A DNA stretch of 33,482 nt from Candidatus Omnitrophota bacterium (lineage in GTDB: Bacteria > Omnitrophota > Gorgyraeia > Zapsychrales > Fredricksoniimonadaceae), in contig JAZDPD010000112.1 of assembly GCA_043798045.1 (NCBI GenBank), positions 1 through 33,482 of the forward strand, given 5' to 3'. How positions within the stretch are numbered: position 1 is the first letter of the stretch; each line of letters begins with the position of its first letter. Below are positions 8,817 to 28,975 of this stretch, in pieces. A model generated the notes under the pieces. It did no database searches. It worked only from the letters and a program-made list of their open reading frames with translations, and was not told the DNA's origin. The position numbers and the translations under genes were made by a program.

Positions 8817-8849
8817 AGAGGGTGAGATGAAGAAGGTGGGGTTGTCGTG

Positions 8850-11799: not shown

Positions 11800-12585
11800 A
11801 TGTGGGGAGGATTGTTAGGTTCAACGTCTGGTTTTTCGCAGCGGGCTGTGCTGTGGAGTTTGGTCAACAAGAATATCAAGGCGCAGTATGCGGGTTCTGT
11901 TTTGGGTTTATTGTGGGCATTTATTAATCCATTGTTATTGGCACTCATCGTGGGTTTTGTGTTTACCAATATCCTGAATGTTACTGTGTCTAATTTTTAT
12001 ATATACATCATATCCGGAATGTTGCCCTGGGGCTTCTTCTCGGTGTCTTTGCTGGAGGCTTCGTTATCTATTCCCAGGCATGCCAGCTTCCTGAAACAGT
12101 TTCCCTTGTCCAAAAGCTTTATTCCGGCGGCAGCGGTTTTGTCGAATTTTATTTTGCTGCTGTTCAGTCTGATGATTTTGTTGCCGCTGTTTATCCTGGT
12201 TTCTCCCAAGATCGTTTTTATGTTGCCCGTGCTCGTCATGGCCTTGGTTTTGTTTTTATTGTTCACGTTCGGGATATCATTAATAACGTCAGTCATGTGT
12301 GTTGAATGGCAGGATATGCGGCAAGTGTTGAATATGCTGATGATGTACTGGTTGTGGCTGACGCCGGTATTTTATAGTGTGGATATGGTTCCTTCCAAAT
12401 ATAAAATTCTTTTGTTGTGCAATCCGGTTAACGTTTATTTGAGCTTGTTCAGAAATGCGTTGTTTGATGGAAAAATGCCCACACCCTGGGCCTGGGGGGT
12501 GGCTGTCGTTTTGGCGCTGATAATGACGGCCGGAGGGCTTTTCCTGTTTAGCAAAAGGGAAGGGGGTTTTTTAAAGAAAATATGA
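11800..12585 (+). CDS. wzm: ABC-2 type polysaccharide export permease (Wzm/TagG/KpsM-like)
   Basis: LVNKNIKAQYAGSVLGLLWAFINPLL is the characteristic ABC-2 permease N-terminal motif. Multiple hydrophobic helices follow. The gene lies directly upstream of, and overlaps by ATGA, an ABC ATPase. Confidence 0.85.
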   Translation: MWGGLLGSTSGFSQRAVLWSLVNKNIKAQYAGSVLGLLWAFINPLLLALIVGFVFTNILNVTVSNFYIYIISGMLPWGFFSVSLLEASLSIPRHASFLKQFPLSKSFIPAAAVLSNFILLLFSLMILLPLFILVSPKIVFMLPVLVMALVLFLLFTFGISLITSVMCVEWQDMRQVLNMLMMYWLWLTPVFYSVDMVPSKYKILLLCNPVNVYLSLFRNALFDGKMPTPWAWGVAVVLALIMTAGGLFLFSKREGGFLKKI

Positions 12586-13799: not shown

Positions 13800-14095
13800 G
13801 GACATCATCATTATTAAAGAATGCGGCACATGTGGTTTTATTACTGGGCATTGTTGCCGCCATGCAGAAATTTTCTGTTGATTCGCTGATGTTTTGGGTT
13901 GTTATTGTCGTGGCGGGTGTTTTATGGCTGGTGTTAAGGTTGCTGGCCATTATAGGACAGCTTGTATATGAAATGCGCAATGATTCGGCCCGTGTTTTGA
14001 GCCAGGTCGAACGTTCGCTGTATCAGATCAATGCTTCCATGCAGGAAGTGCGGGATTTGATGGATTCCAATATAACCACGAAGGATGTGGCATGA
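13796..14095 (+). CDS. small membrane protein (two hydrophobic helices plus a polar helical tail), function unknown
   Basis: ATGA overlaps occur at both ends: with the Wzt stop at 13796-13799 and with the rSAM start at 14092-14095. Hydrophobic segments are AAHVVLLLGIVAAM and FWVVIVVAGVLWLVLRLLAIIG. No family was recognised. Confidence 0.55.
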   Translation: MRTSSLLKNAAHVVLLLGIVAAMQKFSVDSLMFWVVIVVAGVLWLVLRLLAIIGQLVYEMRNDSARVLSQVERSLYQINASMQEVRDLMDSNITTKDVA

Positions 14096-16920
14096 AGGTT
14101 TTTATAATAAATCTGCCGTGGGAAAAGGGTGGATTATGGGGTGTGCGCGCCGGCTCTCGATGGCCGCATATCAAGACGTCTCTGGAAAGGCATTACTCTC
14201 CGTTCCCATTCTTTATGGCGTATGCCGCGGCTCTTTTGAAACGGGAGGGCGTTGAGGTTTGTCTCATTGATTCTTTGGCTGAACAGATCACACTGGATAA
14301 TCTTTTGTCAATGATAGATGCGGGTAAGCCGGATCTTGTGGTGGCGGAAACATCTTCGCCGTCATTATTGAATGATTTGATGATCCTCAACAAGCTTCCT
14401 GCAAAGTTGCCGGTGGCGTTATGTGGTCCTGAAGTTAGTATCCGGGATTTGCATTTTCTTAAGGAGCGTCCGCGCATCACTTATGTGTTTGTGGGGGAAT
14501 ATGAGTTTACTCTTTTGGAATTGGTGCAGTGCTTGAAGGCGGGGCAGGATTTGTCGGGCGTTAAAGGGTTGATCTATCGGGCTCAGGGCCAATGCGTGAC
14601 CAACCCCCCTCGTCCTCTTTTGGAAAACCTGGATGATTTGCCCTGGCCTTTGCGTGACGGGCTTCCCATGGAAAAATACAATGATACGCCCGGGGGGATC
14701 CCATTTCCGAGTGTGCAGATGTGGTCTTCGCGCGGGTGTCCGTATCATTGTTTGTTTTGCAGCTGGCCGCAATTGATGTACCAGAGTCATCGGTACAGAA
14801 CACGCAGCGTGACTGATGTTGTTGATGAGATGGAGTATCTTGTGAATGTGAAGGGGTTTAAGTCTGTATATTTTGATGATGATACCATGAATGTTGGCAA
14901 GCAGCGGATGATGGCGTTGGCAGACGAGATCAAGCGCAGATGTTTGAATGTGCCCTGGGCGATGATGGCGCGGGCGGATTTGATGGAGGAGGATGTGCTT
15001 GAAAACCTGTGTTCCGCCGGATTGGCAGCCGTGAAATACGGGGTTGAGTCGGGTGATCAGCGGCTTGTTGATAACATTAACAAGAAGCTTGATCTGCAGA
15101 AGCTGGAACGGATGGTCCGGTTTACGCAATCTATAGGCATTAAAACACATTTGACGTTTACCTTCGGGCTGCCGGGTGAAACGCACGAAACGATCCAGAA
15201 GACAATTGACTTTGCCAGGCATCTTGATCCAGACACGCTGCAGTTTTCCATTACAACGGCTTTTCCCGGAACACAGTATTACAGGGAGCTTGAAACAAGG
15301 GGGCATATTGTTTCGCGGGATTTACAAGATTATGACGGGAATTCCAGATCCATGCTGCGGACAGCGTGTTTGAGCGCCAAGGAGTTGCAGAGGGCCAAGC
15401 AGGATGCGGACTGGCTTTGGCAGGAACATGTATGGGCAACACGCAAGCACGTTAAGTTGGATGCGGGTTTTCGTGAACGATGTGTGATGTTCGGGAAGAA
15501 AAATGTGTTGCGGCCATTGGTCTTGATGTGGCGATCTTTAATTCGGTATTGTTTGTTGATGGGCCGGAGATTGTGTTCACCGAATCTTAGCATGCAAGTC
15601 AAGGAGCCTGATCTTAGCCTGATTTTTCTCGCCCGGGAATGTTTTTTGAGGATGGGAAGGTGTGTATTAAGGTGGGGCCATGAAACGCTGGCCAGGGTAT
15701 GTGCCCTCAGGCACTGGTATGAGCCTCAGCGGGTATGGTTGAAAAAACTGAAGAATAATGTATTGAACCTGATGGGTGTGCATCATGGGGCTTATGCGTT
15801 TAAAGGCCCGGATTGTGTGCAGATTGATTTGACGAGTAATTGTAATAATAATTGCGTCAGTTGTTGGTGTAATTCCCCGCTCTTAAAAACAAGAATGTAT
15901 AAAGGGGCCAAGAGGTACAAGACCTTGCCGACGCCCATGGTTCTTGCCTTGATGGAGGATCTTGTTGGACTTGGGACCAGCGAGTTGTATTTTTCTGGCG
16001 GCGGCGAGCCGTTCATGCACCCCGATCTTATGACGATCGTGGCGCAGGCCAAGGCCAGGGGGCTGCACTGCTGCATCAATACCAATTTCACGCTTGTGGA
16101 TGAGGCGGTTATTAAACAGCTCATTGATCTTTCGGTGGATGCGTTGACCGTGAGTTTCTGGGCGGCGAATCCGGAGTCCTATGTGCGTACGCATCCTAAT
16201 AAGGATGCCGCCACGTTTGAGCGGATGACACAGATGCTGCGGCTTTTAAATACAGCCAAAGACGGCAGAAAACCGTACATCAAGATTTACAATGTGATTT
16301 CCAACCTGAATTATACAGAGCTTGAAGAGATGGTGGCTTTTGCGGAAGAAACCGGTTCTGAATCCGTGGAGTTCGCGGTGGTGGATACGATTCCCGGCGC
16401 TACGGATCAGCTGTTGCTCAATTATGAACAACGTCAAGCGGTATTGGCGCAGTGTTCGCGGATAATGGCGGCGGCGCATAAGGTGAAGGTGCTTAATCTG
16501 GATACCTTGATACGGCGGTTTTCCGATGTGAGTGCCCAGGAAGCACAATATGACAGCGGGATATTCCAGGAATCATCCTGTTATGTGGGGTGGGTTTTTA
16601 GCCGTATCATGTCCAATGGGGATGTGAATTTCTGCTTGAAAGCTCATCGCATGCCTGTAGGGAATTTGTATGAACATTCTTTCCGCGCTATATGGAATTC
16701 GGCCAAACAGCAGGAATTTCGCGGAAAGGCTTTAAAATTTGATAAGGACGACAGCTTTTTCAAGGCTATCGGTAATGATGAGAATTGTAAAATGGGTTGT
16801 TATAAAAGCTGTGATGATATTGGCAGGAATATGGTGGTGCAGGAGAAAATGAAGCGCCTGTCTTCTGTGCAGAAGACATTGTTGACAATAATGGCCAAAG
16901 TTATGGGGCGCAGGGTTTAA
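14092..16920 (+). CDS. dual radical SAM protein: N-terminal B12-binding-domain radical SAM fused to a C-terminal SPASM/twitch-like radical SAM
   Basis: The N-terminal half begins MKVFIINLPW...GVRAGSRWPH, a class B rSAM style start. Core 1 is SSRGCPYHCLFCSWP (14737-14760). The linker is basic and hydrophobic (about 15440-15770). Core 2 is DLTSNCNNNCVSCWC (15841-15864), followed by YFSGGGEPFMHPD. A C-terminal Cys cluster (16579-16812) contains C-x17-C with NGDVNFC (G-x4-C) and CKMGCYKSC. Confidence 0.88.
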   Translation: MKVFIINLPWEKGGLWGVRAGSRWPHIKTSLERHYSPFPFFMAYAAALLKREGVEVCLIDSLAEQITLDNLLSMIDAGKPDLVVAETSSPSLLNDLMILNKLPAKLPVALCGPEVSIRDLHFLKERPRITYVFVGEYEFTLLELVQCLKAGQDLSGVKGLIYRAQGQCVTNPPRPLLENLDDLPWPLRDGLPMEKYNDTPGGIPFPSVQMWSSRGCPYHCLFCSWPQLMYQSHRYRTRSVTDVVDEMEYLVNVKGFKSVYFDDDTMNVGKQRMMALADEIKRRCLNVPWAMMARADLMEEDVLENLCSAGLAAVKYGVESGDQRLVDNINKKLDLQKLERMVRFTQSIGIKTHLTFTFGLPGETHETIQKTIDFARHLDPDTLQFSITTAFPGTQYYRELETRGHIVSRDLQDYDGNSRSMLRTACLSAKELQRAKQDADWLWQEHVWATRKHVKLDAGFRERCVMFGKKNVLRPLVLMWRSLIRYCLLMGRRLCSPNLSMQVKEPDLSLIFLARECFLRMGRCVLRWGHETLARVCALRHWYEPQRVWLKKLKNNVLNLMGVHHGAYAFKGPDCVQIDLTSNCNNNCVSCWCNSPLLKTRMYKGAKRYKTLPTPMVLALMEDLVGLGTSELYFSGGGEPFMHPDLMTIVAQAKARGLHCCINTNFTLVDEAVIKQLIDLSVDALTVSFWAANPESYVRTHPNKDAATFERMTQMLRLLNTAKDGRKPYIKIYNVISNLNYTELEEMVAFAEETGSESVEFAVVDTIPGATDQLLLNYEQRQAVLAQCSRIMAAAHKVKVLNLDTLIRRFSDVSAQEAQYDSGIFQESSCYVGWVFSRIMSNGDVNFCLKAHRMPVGNLYEHSFRAIWNSAKQQEFRGKALKFDKDDSFFKAIGNDENCKMGCYKSCDDIGRNMVVQEKMKRLSSVQKTLLTIMAKVMGRRV

Positions 16921-16935: not shown

Positions 16936-18729
16936 ATGTGGGGTGGGATAATTTCATATTTTGCTTCTTGGCTGGTGAAGCACTTGCAACGGCAGATGGC
17001 GTTGACGTGGATCCTGATCAAGGCTGTCCGTGCGAAGGCGATGTCCCGTGATGTGATCTTTCGTTGTTATGGCCAGCATGCGTATTTGCACATTCTTTCA
17101 TCGCAAAAGAATGATTTTGAATTATTTGTTCTGGCCATCGAGATCAACAAAATGGTCGGCAACAAGATCGGGTTTGTCATTAAGATCGACAGGGTCAATT
17201 TTTGTTACTTGGAAGAAGTGCTCAATTTTTGCCTTGGTGCTATCGGCGCGAAGTTGATGAATGTCAAGAGGCCCGACGCGGATGAGGCGAAGAGTTTGTT
17301 TGAGCGGTATGAAGGCCTTGTGGCAGGGTTGAACAAGGAGCTGTTGCCGCTCAAGGTGAGTTTCATTTTTGATGATAAAGACCGGCCTGTCTTGAAGCGG
17401 GTGTTGGATTCATTTGAAAACATAGGAAAGAAGTCGCCCGAGTTCGTGAATGACCTTTCTGCAGTGTTTCATCTTTTGGATGCCATCAAAGAGCAGAGGC
17501 ATTCCGCACCGACCACAAACCGGTATTTCAGCTTGTTGTCTGAAGAGCTTATCCTGGGCCCGCGGCAGGTGGTTTTGGACCTGTATCATAAATGCAATAC
17601 AGATTGTGTTCATTGCTGGATCCACAGTCCGACAGCCCGGAAGGTGCTGACCAAGGAGTTTGCTTCTCAGATGATGGATTATGATGTCGTCAAGAAGATC
17701 ATTGATGATTGTTTCAGCCTGGGCGTTGATACCATCACGCTTTTGGGGGATGGTGAGCCGATCCTGCACCCTGATTTTGTCCGCATCGTTAAATATATCA
17801 AGAAAAAGAATCCCTATATGGATGCGTTGACTTTTTCCAATGGCTTGGCATTGACGCCCAGGGTTAGTCAGGAGCTTGTTAAATCCGGGCTCAATGAGAT
17901 TTGGTTCAGTGTCCCGGCCGCCAGCCCCGAGGTTTATCAAAAGATATGCCCTTCCAAGAAGGCGAGGGATTTTGAACGCATAAAAAAGAATATTCACTAT
18001 TTATGCCGTTTGAAGAATAAGGTCAGGGATCTGGTGCAAAAGTTTGACCTTTCAGAAAAGAATGCGATCATTGCGCGAGGCGCCAGGGTAAAAACGTTTC
18101 CGATGCATTGTGTCATCACGTTTGTTTTGCATAATCTCAATTATCATGAAATCCTGGACATGGCCAATATGGCGGTTGAGCTGGGTGTGGACGAGATGCG
18201 TTTTCAACTGATACATTTGGACAGGGATAACAAATGGCTTCAATTGGATCAGGCGCAGGTTGATTTCCTGAACAGCAAGCTGCAGGAGGTGAGGGCTGTT
18301 GCTGAAAAGGGCCGTGTGATGCTGGGCCTGGCACTGGAGTTTCAGCTTTCGCATATGCATGCGCCCACAGGTGACTGGAGCCGGGGATACTATTTACAGC
18401 ATGGATGTCCTATCGGCTTTTTCTTTTCCATCATCAAGGCTAATGGCGATGTAGGTTTGTGCTGCAGCCTGAAGGTTGTTGATAACGTTCATAACAAAAG
18501 TTTTAAGGAGATATGGCTATCGCAGCGTTACCATCAGGCCAGGGTGGGGGCCAAACATCTTCGGGATAATAAAGATCAGCTTTTCCAGTCAACCACATAC
18601 CATAAGAATGAGGCAAGGGGGGATTATCTGTATTCGGAAAGGTGTGAGCTTTGTGATAATCATGATATGAACAATGAGGTGATCCAGTGCTTGTCCCGCA
18701 TCAAGCTGGCAGATCCGTTTATGAAGTAA
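16936..18729 (+). CDS. radical SAM protein with SPASM/twitch-like C-terminal Cys motifs and an uncharacterised ~200-aa N-terminal domain (paralog 1)
   Basis: CxxxCxxC motif YHKCNTDCVHCW (17593-17616, first Cys is residue 220). LLGDGEPILHPD forms the SAM-binding GGE-like strand. C-terminal motifs are GCPIGFFFSIIKANGDVGLCC (G-x4-C) and ERCELCDNHD (18406-18654). It is homologous to the C-terminal half of the 14092 protein and to the 25599 protein. Confidence 0.85.
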   Translation: MWGGIISYFASWLVKHLQRQMALTWILIKAVRAKAMSRDVIFRCYGQHAYLHILSSQKNDFELFVLAIEINKMVGNKIGFVIKIDRVNFCYLEEVLNFCLGAIGAKLMNVKRPDADEAKSLFERYEGLVAGLNKELLPLKVSFIFDDKDRPVLKRVLDSFENIGKKSPEFVNDLSAVFHLLDAIKEQRHSAPTTNRYFSLLSEELILGPRQVVLDLYHKCNTDCVHCWIHSPTARKVLTKEFASQMMDYDVVKKIIDDCFSLGVDTITLLGDGEPILHPDFVRIVKYIKKKNPYMDALTFSNGLALTPRVSQELVKSGLNEIWFSVPAASPEVYQKICPSKKARDFERIKKNIHYLCRLKNKVRDLVQKFDLSEKNAIIARGARVKTFPMHCVITFVLHNLNYHEILDMANMAVELGVDEMRFQLIHLDRDNKWLQLDQAQVDFLNSKLQEVRAVAEKGRVMLGLALEFQLSHMHAPTGDWSRGYYLQHGCPIGFFFSIIKANGDVGLCCSLKVVDNVHNKSFKEIWLSQRYHQARVGAKHLRDNKDQLFQSTTYHKNEARGDYLYSERCELCDNHDMNNEVIQCLSRIKLADPFMK

Positions 18730-18833
18730 AGGGATGGTGTATTGCCGCCTGAGGGATGTCGCACATTGTGTGTTTCAAGAAATAATGGTATGTCCGTGTC
18801 GGGACAGGGTTGTGTCGATTGGAAAGGAAGAGG

Positions 18834-20162
18834 ATGGTCCTTAAGCGCATGAACCGGATTTTTGTATTCTTCATTGGCATCATCATGGCGCTGTTGTTTT
18901 TGGAAACAGGGTTAAGGGTTGGAAGCCTTGTTTATATGTGGCGCCAAGACTCCCTGTCTTCTTCCGTTGCCACGGGTCAGGGGCAAAAATATGTCGTCTT
19001 GTGTTTGGGGAATTCATATACCAAGGGCGACGGGGCCCCGTTGTCCATGAGCTATCCGGCCCAGTTGCAAATTATTTTTGATGAAAAGATGCCTCAACGA
19101 AATATTAAGGTTATTAACAAGGGGCGGGGCGGGCAGAATACATCAGAACTGCTGGATGATTTGATTGTTAATCTTGAAAAATTCAAACCAGATCTTGTTG
19201 TTCTTCAGACGGGGCAGGCTAACCTGTGGAATTACTTACAGTATACGAAATATTTAGGAAAAAATGACAAGCACATGACGTTGTTGCGGCGATGGGCGTA
19301 TTTTGGGAGCGAATGTTTGCATGCCAGCCGAGTTTACAGGCTGTGGTTGTTGTTGGGCGAAAACTTGAAACAAATGAAAGATGGGGACGGCGGGGTTTTA
19401 ACAGAAAATGCTGATGGGTACCGGATTAGTCGTGCATATTTGGAAGCGGTGGATTTTATCAGAGAGATGAACACCGCTTTTTCTAACAGGGTGCCGGTTG
19501 TTCTGGATGAGGCCAGGGTGGCACAGGTGTTGTCTGTGTTGATGGGCGCGATTAAAACAGATCCGGGATATTCGGATAATTATGTACTTGTCGGGCATAT
19601 CTATCGTTTTCAGGAGAAGTATGAAGAAGCGCTGCGGTGGTTTATGGCGTCAGTAGATGTTGATATCAGGGGGCGTCGCGGGGAAGATCTTCATCGTGGG
19701 TATCGTGAAATACGGAATATGCGCAAAATGGACAAAGGGCCGGGACAGGAGCGGCTTAACAGGAAGATAGATGATTATATCAGGCAGTTTAATGCGGTGC
19801 ATCCTGAGGCAGCCGTTAACCTGTATATTTTAAGTGACGCGCAGATTGAGCAGTGGGTTGAGGCCGATATAAATGAGATGGTCCGGATCATCCGGGGGCA
19901 TGGGGCTGCTTTGATCCTGCAGGATTATCCCATTGATACCCCCTCGAATGAAATCCTGAAAAGAATTGCCGAAGAATGGCATGTGCCGCTTGTGAATAAC
20001 AGGGAGGTTTTTCAGGAAAAAATGAAAGCCGGCATGGTTTTTAAGGATTTGTATAGTGTCGATGGTCATTGCAATGCCAGGGGTTATGGTGTGATGGCGG
20101 AAAATGTATATAACAAGATTGTTGAAACGGTTTTTGATCCCTCAAGATTGGCAATCGAATAA
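18834..20162 (+). CDS. membrane-anchored SGNH-like hydrolase with helical/TPR-like insert (family B, copy 1)
   Basis: The track start is TTG 18810. ATG 18834 follows AAGGAAG, and ATG 18849 would match the paralog N-termini (MNRIFVFF...LLFLETGLR). Blocks: VVLCLGNSYTKG (I), NKGRGGQNT (II), LQTGQANLWN (III) and SVDGHCNARGYGVMAEN (V-like). A TPR-like segment reads DPGYSDNYVLVGHIYRFQEKYEEALRWF. Confidence 0.75.
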   Translation: MVLKRMNRIFVFFIGIIMALLFLETGLRVGSLVYMWRQDSLSSSVATGQGQKYVVLCLGNSYTKGDGAPLSMSYPAQLQIIFDEKMPQRNIKVINKGRGGQNTSELLDDLIVNLEKFKPDLVVLQTGQANLWNYLQYTKYLGKNDKHMTLLRRWAYFGSECLHASRVYRLWLLLGENLKQMKDGDGGVLTENADGYRISRAYLEAVDFIREMNTAFSNRVPVVLDEARVAQVLSVLMGAIKTDPGYSDNYVLVGHIYRFQEKYEEALRWFMASVDVDIRGRRGEDLHRGYREIRNMRKMDKGPGQERLNRKIDDYIRQFNAVHPEAAVNLYILSDAQIEQWVEADINEMVRIIRGHGAALILQDYPIDTPSNEILKRIAEEWHVPLVNNREVFQEKMKAGMVFKDLYSVDGHCNARGYGVMAENVYNKIVETVFDPSRLAIE

Positions 20163-20176
20163 AAATTGATGGTCGG

Positions 20177-21604
20177 ATGCAAATGAAAAAGTATAAATTT
20201 GTTATATTGGGCGCGGGTCTTAATGGACTGTCTGTTGCGTATGAATTGTCTAAAGAGCATCCGGGAGAAGTCTGTGTTCTGGAGAAAGAGGGCCAGGTTG
20301 GCGGGATGGCCAAAACCATCGTGCGCCAGGACCGTTGTTATGATTTGGGTTCGCACCGCATTCATGCCCAGGTTTCCAGAGAGATTTTTCAATATCTTGA
20401 AGAATTTGTCGGTGAAGATTTGATTTCCAACGTGCGTGGCGGAAGGCTGAGGATCAAGGATAAATATATTGAATATCCGATTAAGCCGGCTCAGTTCTTT
20501 ACGACGATCGGTCTCAGGAATCTTGGCAGTTTTATTTTTTCGTTGATTTATAACAGGTGCCGTGGTTTGTTGGCCGCAGGGCGTCCGGATCAGGGGAATA
20601 CATACGAGGGGTATTTAAGAAAACAGGTTGGCGACAGGGTTTACGGGCTGTTTTATGAGCCGTATGCCAAGAAGATTTTTGGTCTCCCCCCGGCTGAGAT
20701 TTCGATCACGGCGGTCAAGAAGAGGATGTCTTTATTGAGTCCGTTTGGTTTTGTGAAAAACATGCTTGTGCGGCATTTTGTCGGGGCAAAACCGGACCGT
20801 TATTATTATTTTAAAAATGGCATCGGAGAGCTGGCGCAGGAGTTGGAGTGCCGGTTGGCCGATCGTCATGTGGATATTTTTAAAGGAGTTCGCGAGTTTG
20901 TTCTAAATGGCGACAAGGATATTAAGGAAATCAGGTGGCTGTCCCTGGATGGGCGTCAAGAGGTGATCCGGTATGAGAAGCTGGTATCGACTATCCCTGT
21001 GGATGTGTTGTGCCAGAAACTCGCGTTTAAAGGTTGTGTGGATCAGAATATGTGGCGTGGATTAAGGCTTGTTTTTCTGCACATCAACCAGGCACCGGCC
21101 TTAAGTGGTGAAACGTTTTATTTTCCCGAGTTGAAGTATCCGTTTGGAAGGGTTTCCATTCCGCAGCGGTTTTTTGTTGGCATGCAGCCGGCTCATGGGG
21201 ATGTAAGTTATGTGTGTGAGGTTCCCTGTACGCAGGGTGATGCGTTGTGGCAGATGGATGATCAGGCCCTTGGCCGCATGTGCCATCAGGGTTTGATTGA
21301 GGCCAATCTTGTTACAGGCAGCAGCCGCATGAATGAAGGGCTGAATTTTACGCTCAAGATTCCTGAGGTATATTCAGTTTATTTCCTTGGTTGGGAGGAG
21401 CGCATGCAACAGATGGTGGATTTCCTTGACCAGCAGTATGCGGATATTTATACTTGCGGCAGATTGGGTTTGTTTTTACATTGCAACATCGATCATGCCA
21501 TTGAAATGGGGCAGCAATTGGCCGCAGGGTTGTTGCGCGGCATGACATCCCGGGAATGGCATGCGCGCAGGCATCTGTTTCATGAAATGAAGGTGAGGGA
21601 CTGA
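20177..21604 (+). CDS. FAD-dependent oxidoreductase, amine-oxidase / UDP-galactopyranose-mutase-like fold (paralog 2)
   Basis: KFVILGAGLNGLSVAYELS (GxGxxG), LEKEGQVGGM, and the C-terminal CGRLGLFLHCNIDHAIE. The overall layout matches the 1202 gene. Confidence 0.75.
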   Translation: MQMKKYKFVILGAGLNGLSVAYELSKEHPGEVCVLEKEGQVGGMAKTIVRQDRCYDLGSHRIHAQVSREIFQYLEEFVGEDLISNVRGGRLRIKDKYIEYPIKPAQFFTTIGLRNLGSFIFSLIYNRCRGLLAAGRPDQGNTYEGYLRKQVGDRVYGLFYEPYAKKIFGLPPAEISITAVKKRMSLLSPFGFVKNMLVRHFVGAKPDRYYYFKNGIGELAQELECRLADRHVDIFKGVREFVLNGDKDIKEIRWLSLDGRQEVIRYEKLVSTIPVDVLCQKLAFKGCVDQNMWRGLRLVFLHINQAPALSGETFYFPELKYPFGRVSIPQRFFVGMQPAHGDVSYVCEVPCTQGDALWQMDDQALGRMCHQGLIEANLVTGSSRMNEGLNFTLKIPEVYSVYFLGWEERMQQMVDFLDQQYADIYTCGRLGLFLHCNIDHAIEMGQQLAAGLLRGMTSREWHARRHLFHEMKVRD

Positions 21605-21656
21605 TGTCGGTTTGTTCTATTTTGTTGTGGCGAGCAACGGGAGCCCGGATTGCTGC

Positions 21657-22946
21657 ATGAAAAAATGTCTTGTTTTTTTAACGGGGATCATGGCGGCCCT
21701 GCTTTTTTTGGAGGCAGGCCTTAGCATCGGCGGGTATGGTTATCGCCTAAAATCCGTTGTATGGTCAGATGGGGCTGCACTTGGGCCGCGAGGGGATTTT
21801 GTTGTTTTATGTTTGGGGAATTCGTATACCAAAGGTGTCGGGGCAAGGCCGGGAATGGGGTATCCTGAGCAGTTGCAGCGTTTGCTGGATACGCGCTTGC
21901 CTGATCGGCACATGCGTGTGATTAACAAAGGCAAGGAGATTCAGAATACGGCGGAGTTGCTGGTTGATCTGAGGCCTTTATTGGAACGTATCAGGCCGGA
22001 TTTGATTATTCTTCAGACGGGACAGCCTAATGCCTGGAATTTTATGGGGCATATGAATTATTTAAGAAGAAATGAGAAGGTCGGGTCGCGTTGGCAGCAG
22101 GCCGTGGACTATCTTAAAGATTGTTTGTATGCCAGCCATGTTTATAGATTTGTTGTGTTGCTTCGGGAGAATATCAGGCAGAAAAATGAGAAGATCGTGG
22201 ATGGGGGTATTCCGGGAGGGCTTGATCCTCAAAGCAGCCCGGCGTATGTGAATGCAGAGGAATTTATCCGGGTTTCTTATGATGCCCTGTTTCGCATGGA
22301 GCCGGTTGTTATGGATGAAAAGAAAATCCGGGAAGTTAGTTTGGTTTTTATGGACGCACTCAAGAAAGATCCGTCGAATCCGTATCATTATGTGTATATG
22401 GGGGATGTTTGCCGGTTTCAGAACAGGTTTGAGGAAGCGTCGATGTGGTATATGAAATCGTTGAGTGTTGATGCCAGGACGTCGGGGGCACGGCATTTTC
22501 AGGGGGGATGGTACAGGCTTCGAGATTTGAGTAAAATGGGCAAGGGACCTCATGATGAGGCGATTAACCGGAAGATGGATGTTTTTATCAAACGGTTTGA
22601 TCGGGATTATCCGCAGCAGGCATTGAATTTCCTGTTTTTGAATGACCGTGAAATCAAAGAGTGGATGGCATCAGAAATGAACGAAATTGTCAGGATTATT
22701 CAGCAGATGAAAATTCGTTTGGTGTTGCAGAACTATCCGGTTGATACGCCGGCGAATTCGATCATGGAGGCCGTGGCCGTAAAGAAACGAATACCGTTCA
22801 TTGACAACAAGGCTGTTTTTGACGAGAAGCTGCGTTCGGGGATGCCGCGTGAAGCACTGTTTGTTCCAGATGGCCATTGTAATGAGGCCGGTTATGCGGT
22901 GATGGCGGAAAATGTTTATAGGAAAATCGTGGAAGAAAAGTTTTAG
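21657..22946 (+). CDS. membrane-anchored SGNH-like hydrolase with helical/TPR-like insert (family B, copy 2)
   Basis: The track start is TTG 21612. ATG 21657 gives MKKCLVFLTGIMAALLFLEAGL, matching the paralog N-termini. Blocks: VVLCLGNSYTKG, NKGKEIQNT, LQTGQPNAWN, VPDGHCNEAGYAVMAEN. Confidence 0.75.
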   Translation: MKKCLVFLTGIMAALLFLEAGLSIGGYGYRLKSVVWSDGAALGPRGDFVVLCLGNSYTKGVGARPGMGYPEQLQRLLDTRLPDRHMRVINKGKEIQNTAELLVDLRPLLERIRPDLIILQTGQPNAWNFMGHMNYLRRNEKVGSRWQQAVDYLKDCLYASHVYRFVVLLRENIRQKNEKIVDGGIPGGLDPQSSPAYVNAEEFIRVSYDALFRMEPVVMDEKKIREVSLVFMDALKKDPSNPYHYVYMGDVCRFQNRFEEASMWYMKSLSVDARTSGARHFQGGWYRLRDLSKMGKGPHDEAINRKMDVFIKRFDRDYPQQALNFLFLNDREIKEWMASEMNEIVRIIQQMKIRLVLQNYPVDTPANSIMEAVAVKKRIPFIDNKAVFDEKLRSGMPREALFVPDGHCNEAGYAVMAENVYRKIVEEKF

Positions 22947-22954
22947 GCGGGCAT

Positions 22955-24241
22955 ATGAAAAGAGTTGTTGTTTTTCTAATGGGTGTTGTTGTCGCCCTTC
23001 TTTTTCTGGAGGTTGGCTTAAGGGTTGGGAGCCTGATGGCTCAAATAACCGCGAAAGTTGTCTCCGGAAAGGTGTTGATGAATCCCGGGAAGACATTTGT
23101 CATATTGTGTTTGGGGAATTCGTATACCAAGGGCGTTGGCGCATCACCGGGAATGGGGTATCCTGAGCAGTTGCAGCGTTTGTTTGTTCGGCGTATGCCG
23201 CAGAAGAATGTTGTTGTTATTAATGAAGGCGTGTGTGTGCAGAATACGGCGGAATTGCTGGCGGCGTTGCCATTTAATCTTGAGAAATTTAAGCCTGATC
23301 TTGTTGTTCTTCGGACGGGGCAGCCGAATCAATGGAATTATTTCAAGTATGCAGATTATTTGAAAAGAAGGGCGGGACAGGATGGGTGGGTAAGCCGGTT
23401 GAGATTCTTTGTCATTGATTTACTGAGCAAGAGCCGTGTTTATCGGCTGATGTTGTTGGTGTGCGATCATCTCGGCCAGAAGAATGCTGGAAATCTGACG
23501 GGTGTGTTGAATTCGAGTGAGGCATATCAGAAAGAGTCGGAGTATTTAAAGATGGTGGAGTTTGTCGTAGAGTTGAATTCCCCGTATTTGAAGAAAAAGA
23601 CGGCTGTAGATCCGCTTCGGTTGGAAAGGGCGCGTGATGTGTTGATGCGGGCGATAAGGAAAGATCCGGCCCAGTCAGTTAATTATGTTTATTTGGGAAA
23701 TATAGCCCAGTTTGAAGGGAAATATGAAGAAGCGGCCAAATGGTTTATGAAATCAGTGACGGCAGATGTTCGGGTAAGGAATGGTGAGGATATCCATCAG
23801 GGGTATAAGGCACTGCGCGACATTAGAAATATAGATAAGGGAGTTCACGATGACAGGATTAATCAGGAAATAGATGTTTATATCGATCGTTTTCGACGGG
23901 TATATCCTGAGGAGTCGCGGCAGTTTTATTATTTGAGCCGTCATGAGGTTGATGTCTGGGTGGAGGCGGATGTGCGTAAGATTATTGATGTACTCCAACA
24001 GCATCATGTTCGTCTCCTTGTACAGGATTATCCTGTTAAGAGTTTTGCCAATGGGATTTTAAAAAGGATTGCGGAGGAAAAAAGGCTGCCGATGGTGTCT
24101 AACGAAGAAATTTTTGAAGAAATCCTCAAGGGGGGCGTTGCGTGGCAGGATCTGTTTGTTTCTGATGGGCATTGTAACGACAGAGGGTATGGCATCATGG
24201 CGGAAAATGTTTTCAGGAAAATTGTTGAGGAGAAGTTTTAG
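22955..24241 (+). CDS. membrane-anchored SGNH-like hydrolase with helical/TPR-like insert (family B, copy 3)
   Basis: MKRVVVFLMGVVVALLFLEVGLR, then VILCLGNSYTKG, NEGVCVQNT, LRTGQPNQWN and VSDGHCNDRGYGIMAEN. It shares a 36-nt identical stretch with copy 2 (23147-23182 versus 21849-21884). Confidence 0.78.
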   Translation: MKRVVVFLMGVVVALLFLEVGLRVGSLMAQITAKVVSGKVLMNPGKTFVILCLGNSYTKGVGASPGMGYPEQLQRLFVRRMPQKNVVVINEGVCVQNTAELLAALPFNLEKFKPDLVVLRTGQPNQWNYFKYADYLKRRAGQDGWVSRLRFFVIDLLSKSRVYRLMLLVCDHLGQKNAGNLTGVLNSSEAYQKESEYLKMVEFVVELNSPYLKKKTAVDPLRLERARDVLMRAIRKDPAQSVNYVYLGNIAQFEGKYEEAAKWFMKSVTADVRVRNGEDIHQGYKALRDIRNIDKGVHDDRINQEIDVYIDRFRRVYPEESRQFYYLSRHEVDVWVEADVRKIIDVLQQHHVRLLVQDYPVKSFANGILKRIAEEKRLPMVSNEEIFEEILKGGVAWQDLFVSDGHCNDRGYGIMAENVFRKIVEEKF

Positions 24242-24288
24242 GTTTAAACGTGTGGGTATGGATTGTTAATGGCGGCTGAGGGTTGTTA

Positions 24289-25602
24289 ATGAAAAGAATC
24301 GTTGTTTTTATGGCGGGGCTGATGGTGGCACTCCTTTTTTTAGAGGCTGGCCTAAGGGTGGAAGGCTATGTATATGGGGCAAAGAAGACTAAGGCTGTCG
24401 GCAGCAGCGCTATGTTGCCGCCGGGAGAGCATCCATATGTCATTTTGTGCCTGGGTAATTCCTATACGAAGGGCATCGGATCATCTCCAGGAATGAGTTA
24501 CCCTGAGCAGTTGCAGCGGTTATTTGATGCACACAGACCAAAGGAAAATATTGTTGTCATCAATAAAGGCCGGTGCGTGCAGAATACGGCAGAATTGCTG
24601 GATTCCCTGGAATCTGATTTGAAGCAATTTGAGCCTGATTTGATTCTTCTTCAGATTGGGCAGTCAAATGTCTGGAATTTTATAAAATATACAGATTATT
24701 TGAAAAGAAAGATCAAGAAAAATTCCTGGGTGAGACAGGTGAGGTATGCGGCGTATGATTTTTTGTATGCAAGTCGTGTTTTCAGGCTTGGGCTTTTGTT
24801 GGCGGATAATATCAGGCAAAAAGACAGGCGGCCTGTCCGCGGACGTTTGGTTTCGGCTGATCATCGTTACCGGTCGGATGACGCTTATCGGCAGGCAACA
24901 AAATTTATCAGAAAAACAGCCATCGACCTTTCCATGGATCCGTCCACAAAGGTTGACGTACAGCAGTGTCAGGCAGCGCTGAAGGTTTTGATGAGTGTGG
25001 TGAGCATGGACCCTGGGCATCCATCCAATTATGTTTTTATCGGGTACATTTACCGTTTTCAAAAGGATTATGAAGAGGCATTGAAGTGGTTTATCAAGGG
25101 GGTTGGCGTCGATCCTGAATTCAGGACTTTTGACGAGATCAATGAAGGGTATAAAGAAATCAGGGATATGAGAAGCGAGGATAAAGGGCTGGCCAATGAT
25201 GCTCTTAATAAGAAGATCGATGATTTTATTCAGGTATTTGAACGGGACCATCCGCAGCAGGCTGTTAATTTTTCTATTTTAAGCAAGGATGAGATTCTTG
25301 CATGGGTTGAATCGGATATTTTGGAAATCGTGCGTGTGATTCAACAGCATCATGTGGCGCTTGTTGTTCAGGATTATCCCTTGGCCATACCGGAAAATGA
25401 GGTGATCATGAGGGTTGTGATGGAAAATAATTTACAGTTTCTTGATTACATCAAGATCTTTCAGGATAAGATAAGCGGTGGTTTGAAGCGTGAAGATTTG
25501 TTTGTTCCTGACGGGCATTGCAATGATCGGGGGTATGGGTTGATGGCCGAAAGCCTTTATCGCAAGATCATCTCGGCGGGGTTTATAACGGGAGAGAAAT
25601 GA
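24289..25602 (+). CDS. membrane-anchored SGNH-like hydrolase with helical/TPR-like insert (family B, copy 4)
   Basis: GAGGG lies 6 nt before ATG 24289; the track start is TTG 24283. MKRIVVFMAGLMVALLFLEAGLR, then VILCLGNSYTKG, NKGRCVQNT, LQIGQSNVWN and VPDGHCNDRGYGLMAES. Confidence 0.78.
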   Translation: MKRIVVFMAGLMVALLFLEAGLRVEGYVYGAKKTKAVGSSAMLPPGEHPYVILCLGNSYTKGIGSSPGMSYPEQLQRLFDAHRPKENIVVINKGRCVQNTAELLDSLESDLKQFEPDLILLQIGQSNVWNFIKYTDYLKRKIKKNSWVRQVRYAAYDFLYASRVFRLGLLLADNIRQKDRRPVRGRLVSADHRYRSDDAYRQATKFIRKTAIDLSMDPSTKVDVQQCQAALKVLMSVVSMDPGHPSNYVFIGYIYRFQKDYEEALKWFIKGVGVDPEFRTFDEINEGYKEIRDMRSEDKGLANDALNKKIDDFIQVFERDHPQQAVNFSILSKDEILAWVESDILEIVRVIQQHHVALVVQDYPLAIPENEVIMRVVMENNLQFLDYIKIFQDKISGGLKREDLFVPDGHCNDRGYGLMAESLYRKIISAGFITGEK

Positions 25603-27395
25603 TGGTTCTTGGAATCTTGGCTTATTGTTTCAGAAGATTATTAATCAGGGTAGAATTCTTGCGGCAGCTTGCGGGGCGCCTGATGAGGATGCTGGGGTGC
25701 GGGCTTTTGTCAAGATTCCCTTCTGTAGATTATTATGCGCACAACGATTATCTTTTTCGTCTTATTGTCAAACGGGTGAATTACGGGTTTGACATGATGG
25801 TGTGGACGATCAGGTTTATGAAATTCCTGGGTTTTCGCGTGGTGATCCATATCCATGTGAACCGTTTTAATTATTTCTATATTCCTGAAATGGTTGATCA
25901 TTGTTTGTCCTTAAAAGGTTTGCCGCTAATAGACAGGCACAGGTTTTACGATAAAGACAGGTCTTTTTGGTGCGGGTATTTAAGGTTTATTGATAATTTA
26001 AATAAACATTTGGCATCCTTTGATATTAACATCAGCATTGAAGGGAATGATGAGCCATTGATCGCAGGGATATGTCATGCCATTGATCGTAAAATAACAG
26101 ATGATCCGGATAGTTGGGGGTCATTCAATAAAAAAGTGATGATTCTGGAAGATTCCAAGAAATTTTCGCCATCACGTGCCGGCAGGTATTTAAGTTTGTT
26201 GGCGGAAGAAGTAATGGTCGGGCCGGAAATTGTTGTGATGGATATTTATCATAAATGTAATACAGATTGTTTGCACTGCTGGATGCACAGCCCAAAAGCC
26301 AGGAAGCTGTTGACGCCCGAATTCCTGTCTCAGAAAATGGATTTTGAACGGATGCGGGGCATTGTGGATGATTGTGCACGCATGGGGGTGGATGCGATCA
26401 CGCTTTTGGGGGATGGCGAGCCGGTGTTAAATCCGGATTTCTTGAAGATTCTTTGGCATATCAAGAATGCGAATTCCAATATTAATGTGATGACGTTTTC
26501 AAATGGTTTGGCTGTGACACCAGGCATGAGCCATGAGCTTGTTTCTGCGGGACTTAATGAGATCTGGTTCAGCGTCCCGGCAGCAACGGGAGAAACGTAT
26601 GAAAAAGTTTGCCCGTCCAAGAAGGCGTCTGATTTTAAGAAGGTTCAGCAAAACATCGCGTATTTGTGCCGTTTTAAGAAAATTCTGAAGAGATTGCATC
26701 AAGGCTGGGATGTGGTCAGAGGGAAAAAGGCACTTAAGACCGTTGATCGGAAAAATTGTTTTTCGCCTTATTGTATCATTGCCTATGTTTTACACGCCGA
26801 GAATTACCATGAAATCCTTCCCATGGCTAAAATGGCGGTTGAACTGGGGGTTGATGAAATGCGTTTCCAGCTGATCCATCTTGATAAGGATAACAAGCAT
26901 CTGCAGCTGAGCCAGGAGCAGATTGATTTCCTGAATGAGAAATTGCCGGAAGTAAAATTGGTTGCGGAACAAGGCGGCGTTGCCTTAAGTTCAGCATTAA
27001 AGTTTCAATTGACGAATATGGCTGTTTCGACCGGTGATTGGAGCAAGGGATATTATTTGAAGCATGGTTGTCCCATCGGGTTCTTTTTTTCCATTATTAA
27101 GGCCAATGGCGATGTGGGGTTGTGTTGCGGACTTAAGGTTATTGATAATTTGAATCAGAGGTCTTTTTATGATATCTGGATGTCTTCGGGCTACCGGCAG
27201 GCGCGCATTGGCGCCAAGCACCTGTCTTCCAACAAGGATATGTCATTTCAGAAGACGGATTACCACAAGGATGAAAAAAGGGGGGATTTGCTTTATTCGG
27301 AACGGTGCGAGTATTGTGATAATCATGATTTGAACAATGAATATATTAATGGTTTGATGCACAAAGGTTTTTTTGACCGTTTTATGAAAAATTAG
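25599..27395 (+). CDS. radical SAM protein with SPASM/twitch-like C-terminal Cys motifs and an uncharacterised ~200-aa N-terminal domain (paralog 2)
   Basis: ATGA overlap with the upstream stop. YHKCNTDCLHCW (26256-26279, first Cys again residue 220), LLGDGEPVLNPD, GCPIGFFFSIIKANGDVGLCC and ERCEYCDNHD. By eye, roughly two-thirds of residues are identical to the 16936 protein across the core. Confidence 0.85.
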   Translation: MMVLGILAYCFRRLLIRVEFLRQLAGRLMRMLGCGLLSRFPSVDYYAHNDYLFRLIVKRVNYGFDMMVWTIRFMKFLGFRVVIHIHVNRFNYFYIPEMVDHCLSLKGLPLIDRHRFYDKDRSFWCGYLRFIDNLNKHLASFDINISIEGNDEPLIAGICHAIDRKITDDPDSWGSFNKKVMILEDSKKFSPSRAGRYLSLLAEEVMVGPEIVVMDIYHKCNTDCLHCWMHSPKARKLLTPEFLSQKMDFERMRGIVDDCARMGVDAITLLGDGEPVLNPDFLKILWHIKNANSNINVMTFSNGLAVTPGMSHELVSAGLNEIWFSVPAATGETYEKVCPSKKASDFKKVQQNIAYLCRFKKILKRLHQGWDVVRGKKALKTVDRKNCFSPYCIIAYVLHAENYHEILPMAKMAVELGVDEMRFQLIHLDKDNKHLQLSQEQIDFLNEKLPEVKLVAEQGGVALSSALKFQLTNMAVSTGDWSKGYYLKHGCPIGFFFSIIKANGDVGLCCGLKVIDNLNQRSFYDIWMSSGYRQARIGAKHLSSNKDMSFQKTDYHKDEKRGDLLYSERCEYCDNHDLNNEYINGLMHKGFFDRFMKN

Positions 27396-27418: not shown

Positions 27419-28975
27419 ATGGATAAGGATCTGCTTTTAATTCATTGCCCTTTGGCGTCTGTTGATTTGCCGCCTATGGGGGTGGCGTATATTGCCGCCT
27501 TTGCTCAGGCACAGGGGGTTGTGTGCGATATATTGGATTTAAATGCGTTGCTTCATATTCGTGGTACGGAAAAGCAGAAATGTCTCTGGGATGCGGAGAA
27601 TTATAATCATTGGATCGACGAGGGGTTGTTTGATGCCATTAAGGATGTTCTTAAAGAACCGGTGGAGTCCTGGATCAATTACGTGCTCAAGCAGGGGTAT
27701 CGAACTGTTGGTTTTTCGCTTACGGGAAGCAATCTTCTGTTTTCGATATGGTTAAGCCAGTGTCTGAAGGCCTCTGATGCGTCGATATGTATCGTTTATG
27801 GTGGCCCAACAGTTCATTTCAAACATATTAATCTAGATCCTTTTCGTTTTCTTTCTTCGGTAACGACAGGCGAGCTGTTGGTCAATGAAAAGATGGTGGA
27901 TTATATTGTTTTGGGTGAGGGGGAGAAGGCTATTGTGGATATCGTTCAGGCCGTTAAAGCCGGAAAGCCGGTGGATAATCCCAGTGTGGTGACAACGACC
28001 TGCAAGAAATTGAGTAACAAGCTTTCTTATGTTGATCGACTGGATGATCTGCCTTTCCCTGCCTGGGAAAAACTTTCTTTGAACCAATATACTGTTCGAG
28101 AGGAATTACCGATTCTTTTTAGCCGGGGCTGCGTTAATCATTGTGCGTTTTGTAATGACTGGCTGATCTGGAACGGTAAATATCGTTGCCGGTCAGCCAA
28201 AAATATTTTTCTGGAAATGAAAACAATGAGCCGGCGGTATGGCAAAAGGTCTTTTCGTTGCAATGACTTGATGTTTAACGGCAATTTGAACATGCTTGAT
28301 GAATTGTCGGGTCTGTTGATTGCCTCGGGGCTTGAAGTGAATTGGGGTGGCCAGGGATATATACGTAAGGATATGACGCAACAGTTGTTAGATAAAATGT
28401 ATAAGGCCGGTTTGCGGGATATTGTTTTCGGGGTAGAGAGTTTGTCTGATCATGTGCTTGTAAAAATGCGCAAACCGTTCACGTTTGATGATGTTTTGCT
28501 GGTGTTAAAGAGAACCAAGGCGGCGGGTATCCGAACGCATATAAATTTGATTGTGGGATTTCCGGGAGAAACCGAGGAGGATCATTTGTTGACACAGGAA
28601 CGGCTTGGTGTATTAAGCCCGGTGCTGGATACGGTGGCTAATATCAATTGCTGTCGTCTTATGGCGGATGCGCCGATTGAATCATGCTTTGATCAGTTTG
28701 GCATTGTGTGTGCGGACAAGCCTAATATGTGTGAGGCCTGGGGTACCATCGATGGTTTGAATAATCTTGACATCAGGCAGCAGCGGATGGATGAAATGGA
28801 ACATGCTGTGGCCAGGTCTGGCATCAAACGGGTGATTGAGCCCTTGAAGGCTCCAGCATTGTCGCAGGGGCATGGATGGATGGTTATTTGTGGGCATGTC
28901 TGGCGGGTGCTCTTGTGGTTAATTGCGGCGGTGTTATTACTGAAATTTGTTTTACGCGTATTGCACAGTAAATAA
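27419..28975 (+). CDS. B12-binding-domain radical SAM protein with a C-terminal hydrophobic tail
   Basis: The N-terminus DLLLIHCPLASVDLPPMGVAYIAAFAQAQG has a B12-binding-domain rSAM style. It has the motifs DDLPFPAW and FSRGCVNHCAFCNDW (28130-28153). The C-terminal WRVLLWLIAAVLLLKFVL looks like a tail anchor. Confidence 0.85.
   Translation: MDKDLLLIHCPLASVDLPPMGVAYIAAFAQAQGVVCDILDLNALLHIRGTEKQKCLWDAENYNHWIDEGLFDAIKDVLKEPVESWINYVLKQGYRTVGFSLTGSNLLFSIWLSQCLKASDASICIVYGGPTVHFKHINLDPFRFLSSVTTGELLVNEKMVDYIVLGEGEKAIVDIVQAVKAGKPVDNPSVVTTTCKKLSNKLSYVDRLDDLPFPAWEKLSLNQYTVREELPILFSRGCVNHCAFCNDWLIWNGKYRCRSAKNIFLEMKTMSRRYGKRSFRCNDLMFNGNLNMLDELSGLLIASGLEVNWGGQGYIRKDMTQQLLDKMYKAGLRDIVFGVESLSDHVLVKMRKPFTFDDVLLVLKRTKAAGIRTHINLIVGFPGETEEDHLLTQERLGVLSPVLDTVANINCCRLMADAPIESCFDQFGIVCADKPNMCEAWGTIDGLNNLDIRQQRMDEMEHAVARSGIKRVIEPLKAPALSQGHGWMVICGHVWRVLLWLIAAVLLLKFVLRVLHSK

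Follow-up and report, generated by a model that had tools for sequence, protein, structure and literature searches.

The window analysed here is a contig of 33,482 nucleotides (nt) from a Candidatus Omnitrophota bacterium (JAZDPD010000112.1 of assembly GCA_043798045.1, positions 1-33,482, forward strand). It carries a glycan-biosynthesis cluster with all the called genes on the + strand, to which the window coordinates below refer. Four paralogous genes of this cluster, c1 (18834-20162, 442 amino acids (aa)), c2 (21657-22946, 429 aa), c3 (22955-24241, 428 aa) and c4 (24289-25602, 437 aa), encode proteins of the SGNH family with an N-terminal anchor helix. In the predicted structure, a helical module is inserted into the SGNH fold between block III and strand beta4. 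These proteins belong to a large and uncharacterised clade whose genes are repeatedly linked to an O-carbamoyltransferase cassette. We tentatively propose, with somewhat less than even confidence, that c1-c4 are membrane-anchored, site-specific hydrolases editing ester or carbamate groups of a glycan exported by an ATP-binding cassette (ABC) transporter. Ester groups that decorate the surface glycans of bacteria are added or removed chiefly by SGNH enzymes, and these decorations set antigenicity, recognition by phages and predators, and the properties of the polymer.

The four paralogs retain the predicted SGNH catalytic residues

The initial annotation of this DNA had described four genes with a common layout, and all the motifs that it listed were present in c1-c4: LLFLE-x-GL(R/S), LCLGNSYTKG, NxG..QNT, TGQxNxWN and DGHCN..GY..MAE. 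The last of these is preceded by (Q)DYP. We ran the profile searches of SGNH and tetratricopeptide repeat (TPR) families that it had proposed, and Pfam Lipase_GDSL_2 (PF13472) scored above its gathering cutoff of 32.9 bits in all four copies (35.3-42.8 bits; 41 bits for c1). No NCBIfam family was assigned to the SGNH proteins of the window. For three of the copies, the program that listed the open reading frames (ORFs) had placed the start at an upstream TTG (18810, 21612 and 24283). The ATG starts of c1-c4 give MKR or MKK followed by a hydrophobic helix, like those of the homologs; c2 was delimited by its ORF, the Pfam match and the motifs. The N-terminus thus read has two to five Lys/Arg residues, a hydrophobic helix of about 16-20 residues and then a conserved Glu..Arg pair.

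Among 34 members of the family, E19, R23, C52, G54, N55, S56, T58, N90, G92, Q96, N97, G122, Q123, N125, W127, N128, Q357, Y359, P360, D404, H406 and C407 were invariant or nearly so, and c1-c4 have retained all of them. Block I is an invariant G54-N55-S56-Y-T58, the GNS form, in which Asn replaces the Asp of G-D-S; two TPR-rich paralogs elsewhere in the window carry Glu at this position. In block II, N90-x-G92 and Q96-N97-T are invariant. When the family was aligned by hhalign with the single sequence of TesA, S56 fell on TesA Ser10; this alignment covers blocks I-III only, and the C-terminal half was placed by Pfam, by profile matches to PDB chains and by Foldseek. The conservation is best explained if c1-c4 are catalytically intact SGNH enzymes, with Ser56 as the predicted nucleophile, His406 as the base and Asp404 two residues before it.

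The mutual protein identity of c1-c4 is 43-47%, and it is unevenly distributed. Among the window paralogs the N-terminal half of the core is 62% identical and the C-terminal half 49%, against 37% for the insert and 30% for the first third of the insert.

Two relatives from other loci deviate from this pattern. In the multi-copy locus L010, the member at 8670-9989 has Phe in place of Ser56, and in L009 the member at 8823-10144 is split by a frameshift near its C-terminus. These two copies indicate that the arrays also gather inactive members.

A helical module is inserted into the SGNH fold

An AlphaFold2 (AF2) model was built for c3, the copy chosen for modelling, from a 21-sequence alignment (mean predicted local distance difference test score 81). 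It has beta1 at residues 48-53, beta2 at 86-90, beta3 at 116-120, helices from 128 to 349, beta4 at 353-357 and a C-terminal helix. In a Foldseek search against the PDB, the model aligned across both halves (about 387 query columns) to single-domain SGNH esterases, with target template-modelling (TM) scores of 0.71-0.76 (TesA 1u8u, 0.76; 9otv, 0.74; also 5tic and 7ddy). As the alignment spans both halves, the N- and C-terminal pieces make up one SGNH core in the model, from which the helices are an excursion; the initial annotation had raised this arrangement as a point for structure prediction. The module is thus placed by the models between block III (beta3) and beta4. Of the five-strand alpha/beta/alpha layout, the AF2 models of c3 and of the TPR-rich paralog at 10339 both show beta1-beta3, the insert and beta4(-beta5). 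TesA, 9otv and 7ddy, among the best structural matches of the reassembled core, differ from c1-c4 in that enzymes of this type are soluble proteins of about 180-200 aa with neither anchor nor insert, and have the canonical GDS, Gly, GxND and DxxH.

The family profile gave the same division when it was compared with PDB sequences: SGNH chains were matched separately by positions 54-128 and 342-422, and consensus TPR proteins at about 218-280, corresponding to about two TPR units. The all-helical insert foreseen in the initial annotation is thus present, although its size is about 220 aa (residues ~128-350 in c3) and not about 250 aa. Its TPR-like units, similarly, are seen by the family profile, whereas all the single Pfam TPR matches in c1-c4 remained below cutoff, the best being TPR_8 in c4 (25.4 bits against 25.7). 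A degenerate TPR is probably the best explanation for the insert of c1-c4.

Two further genes upstream, at 8847-10313 (paralog 'a') and 10339-11757 (paralog 'b', 472 aa), have the same split layout and bring the number of paralogs to the six counted at first. They share the anchor, blocks I-III (GES in block I and the canonical GxND) and a C-terminal GHC; this last motif reads WGHC, and the Asp of block V is absent. Multiple Pfam TPR families matched these paralogs at 9123 ('a') and 10339 ('b') with E-values of 1e-12 to 1e-24, and 'b' also matched Lipase_GDSL_2. In 'b', the common anchor and blocks I-III are followed by five to six TPRs and then by beta4/beta5 with the GHC. Its AF2 model has beta1-beta3 at 52-116, helices at 135-408 and beta4/beta5 at 411-438, a topology like that of c3, and Foldseek matched its insert to the TPR superhelices of MamA and CTPR (target TM 0.77-0.83). 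Relatives with short inserts also exist in the family. Because the insert may be short, degenerate or a full TPR array, we consider the site to be an insertion hot-spot for a variable accessory module.

Paralog 'a' contains an in-frame TAG at 9066-9068 where the neighbouring paralog has CAG (Gln), and the frame is intact on both sides. The stop codons used in the window (TAG 10, TGA 10, TAA 6) give no sign of reassignment, and the TAG is either a nonsense mutation in a young pseudogene or a sequencing error.

The array is old and its copies are individually conserved

The array is interrupted between c1 and c2 by an FAD/NAD(P)-binding oxidoreductase of the amine-oxidase/PRK07208-like type (20177-21604; Pfam NAD_binding_8 and Amino_oxidase, NCBIfam PRK07208-type). 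It is flanked by two paralogous radical SAM/SPASM genes (16936-18729 and 25599-27395). A syntenic array was found in another Candidatus Omnitrophota metagenome-assembled genome (GCA_043803685; locus L002), in the order carbamoyltransferase, SGNH, FAD oxidoreductase, four SGNH copies, radical SAM/SPASM, a fusion of B12-binding radical SAM and SGNH, a GT1 glycosyltransferase and a protein without assigned function. The oxidoreductase is kept there at the same position, and so is the radical SAM/SPASM flank.

The initial annotation had noticed a 36-nt identity between c2 (21849-21884) and c3 (23147-23182), encoding PGMGYPEQLQRL, and took it as a sign of recent duplication or gene conversion. The match is exact and is confined to these 36 nt. 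Recent duplication is not supported, however. The DNA identity of c1-c4 is only 56-59%, and their synonymous divergence (dS) is saturated or nearly so. In a neighbour-joining tree, c1 grouped with the first of the L002 copies (bootstrap 66) and c4 with a pair of them (bootstrap 84); c3 grouped weakly with another L002 pair (bootstrap 34). The divergence and the orthologous pairing together led us to reject recent duplication as well as concerted evolution. Given the pairing and the synteny, the array, including its interruption by the oxidoreductase, is older than the split of the two genomes, and c1-c4 are old, individually conserved paralogs.

We examined the 36-nt run by a permutation in which the amino-acid alignment was fixed and codon pairs were shuffled among columns with the same residues. 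The run was significant for the c2/c3 pair (p=0.0026, or about 0.016 after allowing for six pairs), and no other pair among c1-c4 has an identical run of more than 18 nt. It exceeds the expectation from protein conservation alone only modestly; of the gene conversion suggested at first, at most a conversion tract of 36 nt is possible.

L002 also holds one recent duplicate pair (79% aa identity, dS 0.35, dN/dS 0.34, the ratio of nonsynonymous to synonymous divergence). This pair indicates that the arrays are still growing and that the new copies are under purifying selection.

The split architecture defines a large clade

Word-indexed searches returned 23 and 47 relatives, mostly from Omnitrophota, which pictured the family as tiny and specific to that phylum. 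An exhaustive HMMER search overturned this picture: at E<=1e-30 it yielded at least 1,413 representative clusters at 50% identity, of which the top 150 all scored above 240 bits. Full-length proteins of 400-450 aa are frequent among the matches, while other members carry additional repeats and are longer. The split layout is real, but the description of it as 'not a standard SGNH architecture' was overstated in one sense, as it is what defines this family. In the source databases the members are called 'SGNH/GDSL hydrolase', 'lysophospholipase L1-like esterase', 'GDSL-type esterase/lipase' or 'TPR repeat protein'; the family is thus already labelled SGNH/GDSL and yet uncharacterised. A genome scan keyed on [IV]LCLGNS[YF]T gave 18 loci, nearly all of them from Omnitrophota.

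The clade is linked to a carbamoyltransferase cassette

When these 18 loci were probed with the window proteins, about 15 of them had the same cassette directly upstream of the SGNH gene(s): a WbuX-like enzyme, a membrane protein of about 75 aa, a DUF5989 protein of about 55 aa, an O-carbamoyltransferase and then one to six SGNH copies. The carbamoyltransferase gene lies directly upstream of the SGNH gene, often overlapping it, in L002, L003, L005 and most other loci. In the window, the cassette consists of a WbuX-like PP-loop enzyme (4575-5609; TIGR03573, 155 bits against a cutoff of 203), a 76-aa membrane protein (5616-5846), a 56-aa single-transmembrane DUF5989 protein (5857-6027; Pfam DUF5989, 23.7 bits against a cutoff of 27) and an O-carbamoyltransferase of the NodU/CmcH/SxtI type (6040-7749; Carbam_trans_N and Carbam_trans_C, E~1e-68 to 1e-70). 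An epimerase gene and the two TPR-rich SGNH genes follow, and the four GNS-type copies are located 9 kb further downstream between the paralogous radical SAM/SPASM genes. At a distant member of the family, P0179, the cassette is kept with a permuted order.

This gene set resembles part of the saxitoxin clusters, which contain sxtI (carbamoyltransferase), sxtJ, sxtK (165 bp) and sxtL (1281 bp, GDSL-lipase-like, annotated for 'decarbamoylation') (PMC2679770). In Lyngbya wollei, SxtL is absent and sxtI is truncated (PMC3037375). Compared by gene content and description, sxtI-J-K-L corresponds to the cassette of the window and of the ~15 loci. SxtL, a GDSL/SGNH protein of ~427 aa, is about double the size of a plain SGNH domain, and SxtK (~54 aa) has the size and position of the DUF5989 protein. 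The clusters differ in that SxtL belongs to secondary metabolism and c1-c4 to a glycan cluster. The 76-aa protein was considered as a candidate SxtJ and rejected, since it had no match in Pfam (including the Pfam SxtJ family) or NCBIfam and no BLAST similarity to bona fide SxtJ; it occupies the SxtJ position and shares the membrane character. No protein named SxtL was recovered by the profile search, among the names in the clusters of 10 distant members, or by a search seeded with the SGNH protein of Methylosinus described below, and a tblastn search of plasmids with c3 gave no match.

Comparable cassettes annotated by the Prokaryotic Genome Annotation Pipeline (PGAP) were found on two plasmids. 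On Methylosinus plasmid pMSC49c, a 424-aa SGNH protein with a split Pfam match is followed by SxtJ (PF19588), DUF5989 and a carbamoyltransferase. The profile of this Methylosinus-type SGNH matched that of the family with E=1.6e-5 and a probability of 79%, over the anchor Glu..Arg, blocks I-III and the first insert helices only, and the protein probably represents a second, independent lineage found beside SxtJ, DUF5989 and carbamoyltransferase. On Paludisphaera borealis plasmid PALBO1 (L025, 4992-8125), the order is carbamoyltransferase, SxtJ, DUF5989 and a sugar O-acetyltransferase, and the cassette adjoins exosortase/EpsI and a tyrosine autokinase. Judging from these plasmid cassettes, the SxtI/J/K-like module serves the tailoring of exopolysaccharides in general and is not specific to saxitoxin. 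The linkage is best explained if the carbamoyltransferase, the two tiny membrane proteins and the WbuX-like enzyme are the ancestral genomic partner of the SGNH clade. Our literature searches found nothing on DUF5989, on carbamoyltransferase with SGNH in O-antigen, or on O-carbamoyl polysaccharide with GDSL.

A proposed role in editing an exported glycan

The glycan context that the initial annotation had assumed was borne out by the Pfam annotation of the window, which places the array in a glycan-tailoring cluster. This cluster encodes a Wzm/Wzt-type ABC-2 glycan exporter (11800-13799; Pfam ABC2_membrane and ABC_tran) besides several glycosyltransferases. The Wzt gene (12582-13799) includes a region, window 13392-13559, whose equivalent in Wzt proteins is often the part that binds the terminus of the glycan.

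In the mechanism that we favour, the N-terminal Lys/Arg residues and the hydrophobic helix would form an uncleaved signal anchor, with the catalytic domain on the periplasmic face. There, each paralog might hydrolyse one particular O-acyl or O-carbamoyl ester. The substrate would be the glycan exported by the Wzm/Wzt transporter, or a lipid-linked precursor of that glycan, with decorations that the carbamoyltransferase and other tailoring enzymes would have attached in the cytoplasm. The conserved SGNH core would account for the chemistry, and the faster-evolving insert for site or partner specificity. Hydrolytic editing is the simplest chemistry because no acyl-translocating partner (MBOAT/AT3) occurs in any of the loci, and it agrees with the decarbamoylase function predicted for SxtL.

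The absence of such a partner also bears on the analogy with AlgX, AlgJ and PatB that had been drawn initially. The SGNH domains of AlgJ/AlgX, PatB/Ape1 and OafA/OafB are periplasmic or signal-anchored, use Ser-His(-Asp) and act on exported polysaccharides as O-acetyltransferases or esterases, and the AlgJ/AlgX, PatB and OafA/OafB systems require a membrane protein of the MBOAT or AT3 type as a partner. The SGNH fold is common to these proteins and c1-c4. The defining partner is not, as no match to MBOAT or AT3 (Acyl_transf_3) was obtained in the window or among the polytopic neighbours in the related loci, which are PMT_2, MatE or unrelated transporters or have no Pfam match. To our knowledge, no protein of the AlgJ/AlgX/PatB/OafA type has a TPR module between block III and beta4.

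The periplasmic orientation is suggested by the neighbours. In L002, the gene at 17099-19471 joins three parts in a natural fusion: a B12-binding radical SAM domain, an anchor helix with LLELALR and an SGNH domain with a short insert (GES, canonical DNWH). Its counterpart in the window, the B12-binding radical SAM enzyme at 27419-28975, shares 67% identity with it over residues 1-479 and, with a terminal hydrophobic helix at residues 497-515, ends just after the equivalent helix. The fusion suggests that the radical SAM step and the SGNH step are functionally coupled across the membrane. Since its anchor follows a B12-radical-SAM domain that is necessarily cytoplasmic, the SGNH domain probably faces the periplasm. 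Recurrent neighbours in the related loci are B12 radical SAM enzymes, PMT_2 (GT-C) glycosyltransferases, sulfatase-family (LtaS/EptA-like) proteins, GT2 glycosyltransferases and second SGNH copies. The GT-C and sulfatase-family proteins point to the same orientation because their active sites face the periplasm. The N-terminal flank of the SGNH anchor is rich in Lys/Arg.

Several observations weigh against periplasmic hydrolytic editing. The C-terminal flank of the anchor also has two to four Lys/Arg residues, so that the charge rule is not decisive, and tailoring in ABC-transporter pathways is normally cytoplasmic. The oxyanion Gly of block II (the position of TesA Gly44) occurs only in c1 among the window copies; it is V/I in c2-c4 and V/I/N/C elsewhere in the family. 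Block III is G122-Q-(P/A/S)-N125-x-W-N128, with the Asn displaced by one position towards the C-terminus relative to the canonical GxND, and block V is D-G-H (Asp404 near-invariant, His406 invariant) where the canonical spacing is DxxH. As judged from sequence, such deviant blocks II, III and V would be typical of SGNH transferases such as TviD. In the Paludisphaera cassette, the slot after DUF5989 is taken by the sugar O-acetyltransferase, an LbH protein, which hints at a transferase role. The cassette is absent at the distant members P0190 and P0194, one of the two being from Patescibacteria. Finally, the decarbamoylase role of SxtL is itself only a prediction.

Alternative explanations

Some of these observations would be accommodated if c1-c4 were acyl-CoA-dependent O-acyltransferases of the TviD type on the cytoplasmic face, tethered to the inner leaflet, with the insert docking glycosyltransferases or the exporter for position-specific acylation before export. 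We consider this possible but rather unlikely. TviD, from the Vi antigen pathway of Salmonella Typhi and Bordetella, is a precedent of an SGNH-family O-acetyltransferase with TPRs and atypical blocks in an ABC-transporter capsule pathway (PMC8760489). Through a C-terminal TPR domain, TviD associates with the membrane and binds the GT4 polymerase; the protein is cytoplasmic, has no N-terminal anchor, uses Cys18 and His, and its blocks II and III are unrecognisable (PMC8760489). By its published description, TviD thus resembles c1-c4 in combining a membrane-associated SGNH domain with TPRs and atypical blocks in a surface-glycan pathway of the ABC-transporter type. The atypical blocks II and III of the family, Wzm/Wzt and the glycosyltransferases of the window, the LbH enzyme in the equivalent Paludisphaera slot and the usual cytoplasmic site of tailoring all speak for this alternative. 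The N-terminus, however, resembles a signal anchor, a hydrophobic helix that TviD lacks, and the L002 fusion has its anchor after the cytoplasmic domain, suggesting an SGNH domain across the membrane. In addition, the nucleophile is Ser and not Cys, and the TPRs are inserted in the fold and not C-terminal. TviD can thus be regarded as an analogue in function whose domains are ordered differently and whose nucleophile is Cys.

Periplasmic editing shares its location with a second alternative, a relay of O-acyl or O-carbamoyl transfer. A membrane-docked carbamoyltransferase would load a lipid carrier, which would be flipped, and an acyl- or carbamoyl-enzyme at Ser56 would pass the group to distinct glycan sites, in a manner likened to MBOAT with AlgJ/AlgX or PatA with PatB. 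We regard such a relay as improbable. We give the same low probability to its structural form, a trans-envelope carbamoylation/acylation machine with an SxtI-type carbamoyltransferase held by the two tiny transmembrane proteins and by the Glu..Arg anchor of the SGNH protein. The relay draws on the overlap or translational coupling of the carbamoyltransferase and SGNH genes, on the conservation of the single-transmembrane partners (the 76-aa protein and DUF5989) and of the anchor Glu..Arg pair, which is common even to the Methylosinus-type lineage, and on the oxyanion-hole blocks, atypical as in SGNH transferases. It would, however, need an acyl-translocating partner, and no known one (MBOAT/AT3) is present in any locus; a trans-membrane carbamoyl relay also lacks precedent, making this reading entirely inferential.

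A third alternative takes the source annotations ('lysophospholipase L1-like esterase', 'GDSL-type esterase/lipase') literally, and c1-c4 would be lipases or lysophospholipases of a general kind, with membrane lipids as their substrates and no connection to the glycan cluster. TesA, or lysophospholipase L1, is indeed among the best structural matches. The labels are automatic superfamily names, however, and the consistent glycan-cluster setting, the linkage to the carbamoyltransferase cassette in many genomes and the multi-copy arrays with conserved orthologs make this explanation still less probable. That c1-c4 are non-catalytic scaffolds, whose TPR-like inserts organise a biosynthetic or export complex, is very improbable: the non-canonical GNS, the block II Gly missing in three copies, the shifted block III Asn and the one relative with Phe at Ser56 (L010_8670) would fit a pseudoenzyme, but Ser56, His406 and Asp404 are near-invariant in the 34 members, purifying selection is seen in the L002 pair, and the core is more conserved than the insert.

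What emerges from the analysis is a large SGNH clade, so far unstudied, which comprises at least 1,400 clusters and has a fixed site of TPR/helical insertion and a conserved anchor motif. Its recurrent partnership with the O-carbamoyltransferase, DUF5989 and an SxtJ-type protein gives a testable functional context for the orphan DUF5989/SxtK and SxtJ proteins, as well as for SxtL. The part that SxtL plays in the biosynthesis of saxitoxin has been no more than a prediction since 2008. The multi-copy arrays of Omnitrophota, with up to six copies, suggest a combinatorial editing of surface glycans. Were the relay true, SxtL-type proteins would be carbamoyl-handling partners of SxtI/J/K in general, and not a 'decarbamoylase'. 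Omnitrophota are, as far as we know, ultra-small and possibly host-attached bacteria with no cultured representatives in which to test these ideas.

Other features of the cluster

The gene at 30359-31963 encodes a 534-aa protein with about 10 predicted transmembrane segments, located after a GT1 gene in the window as well as in L002. It was considered as a hidden MBOAT/AT3 translocase and rejected: it had no match in Pfam, NCBIfam or PDB sequences, and among the related loci it is conserved beside SGNH genes only in L002. In a single comparison, its C-terminal part weakly resembled a PMT_2 protein of L001 (E=5e-4), and a divergent GT-C glycosyltransferase is a possible identity.

The cluster has five radical SAM genes (14092-16920, 16936-18729, 25599-27395, 27419-28975 and 31983-33410), which together encode six radical SAM domains. 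In one of the proteins, 942 aa long, a B12-binding radical SAM domain (HpnJ/BchE-like) is fused to a SPASM radical SAM domain. The paralogous radical SAM/SPASM proteins at the array flanks are ~598 aa each and have N-terminal extensions of ~200 aa without an assigned function. This density of radical chemistry is unusual for sugar tailoring.

There are two FAD oxidoreductases of the amine-oxidase type, at 1109-2497 and at 20177-21604. In L014 and L015 the former is conserved beside pairs of SGNH genes; the latter is conserved inside the L002 array. The GC skew is strongly positive in each 1-kb bin of the window (1-33482), ranging from +0.15 to +0.37, and the excess of G over C on the coding strand is unusually strong.

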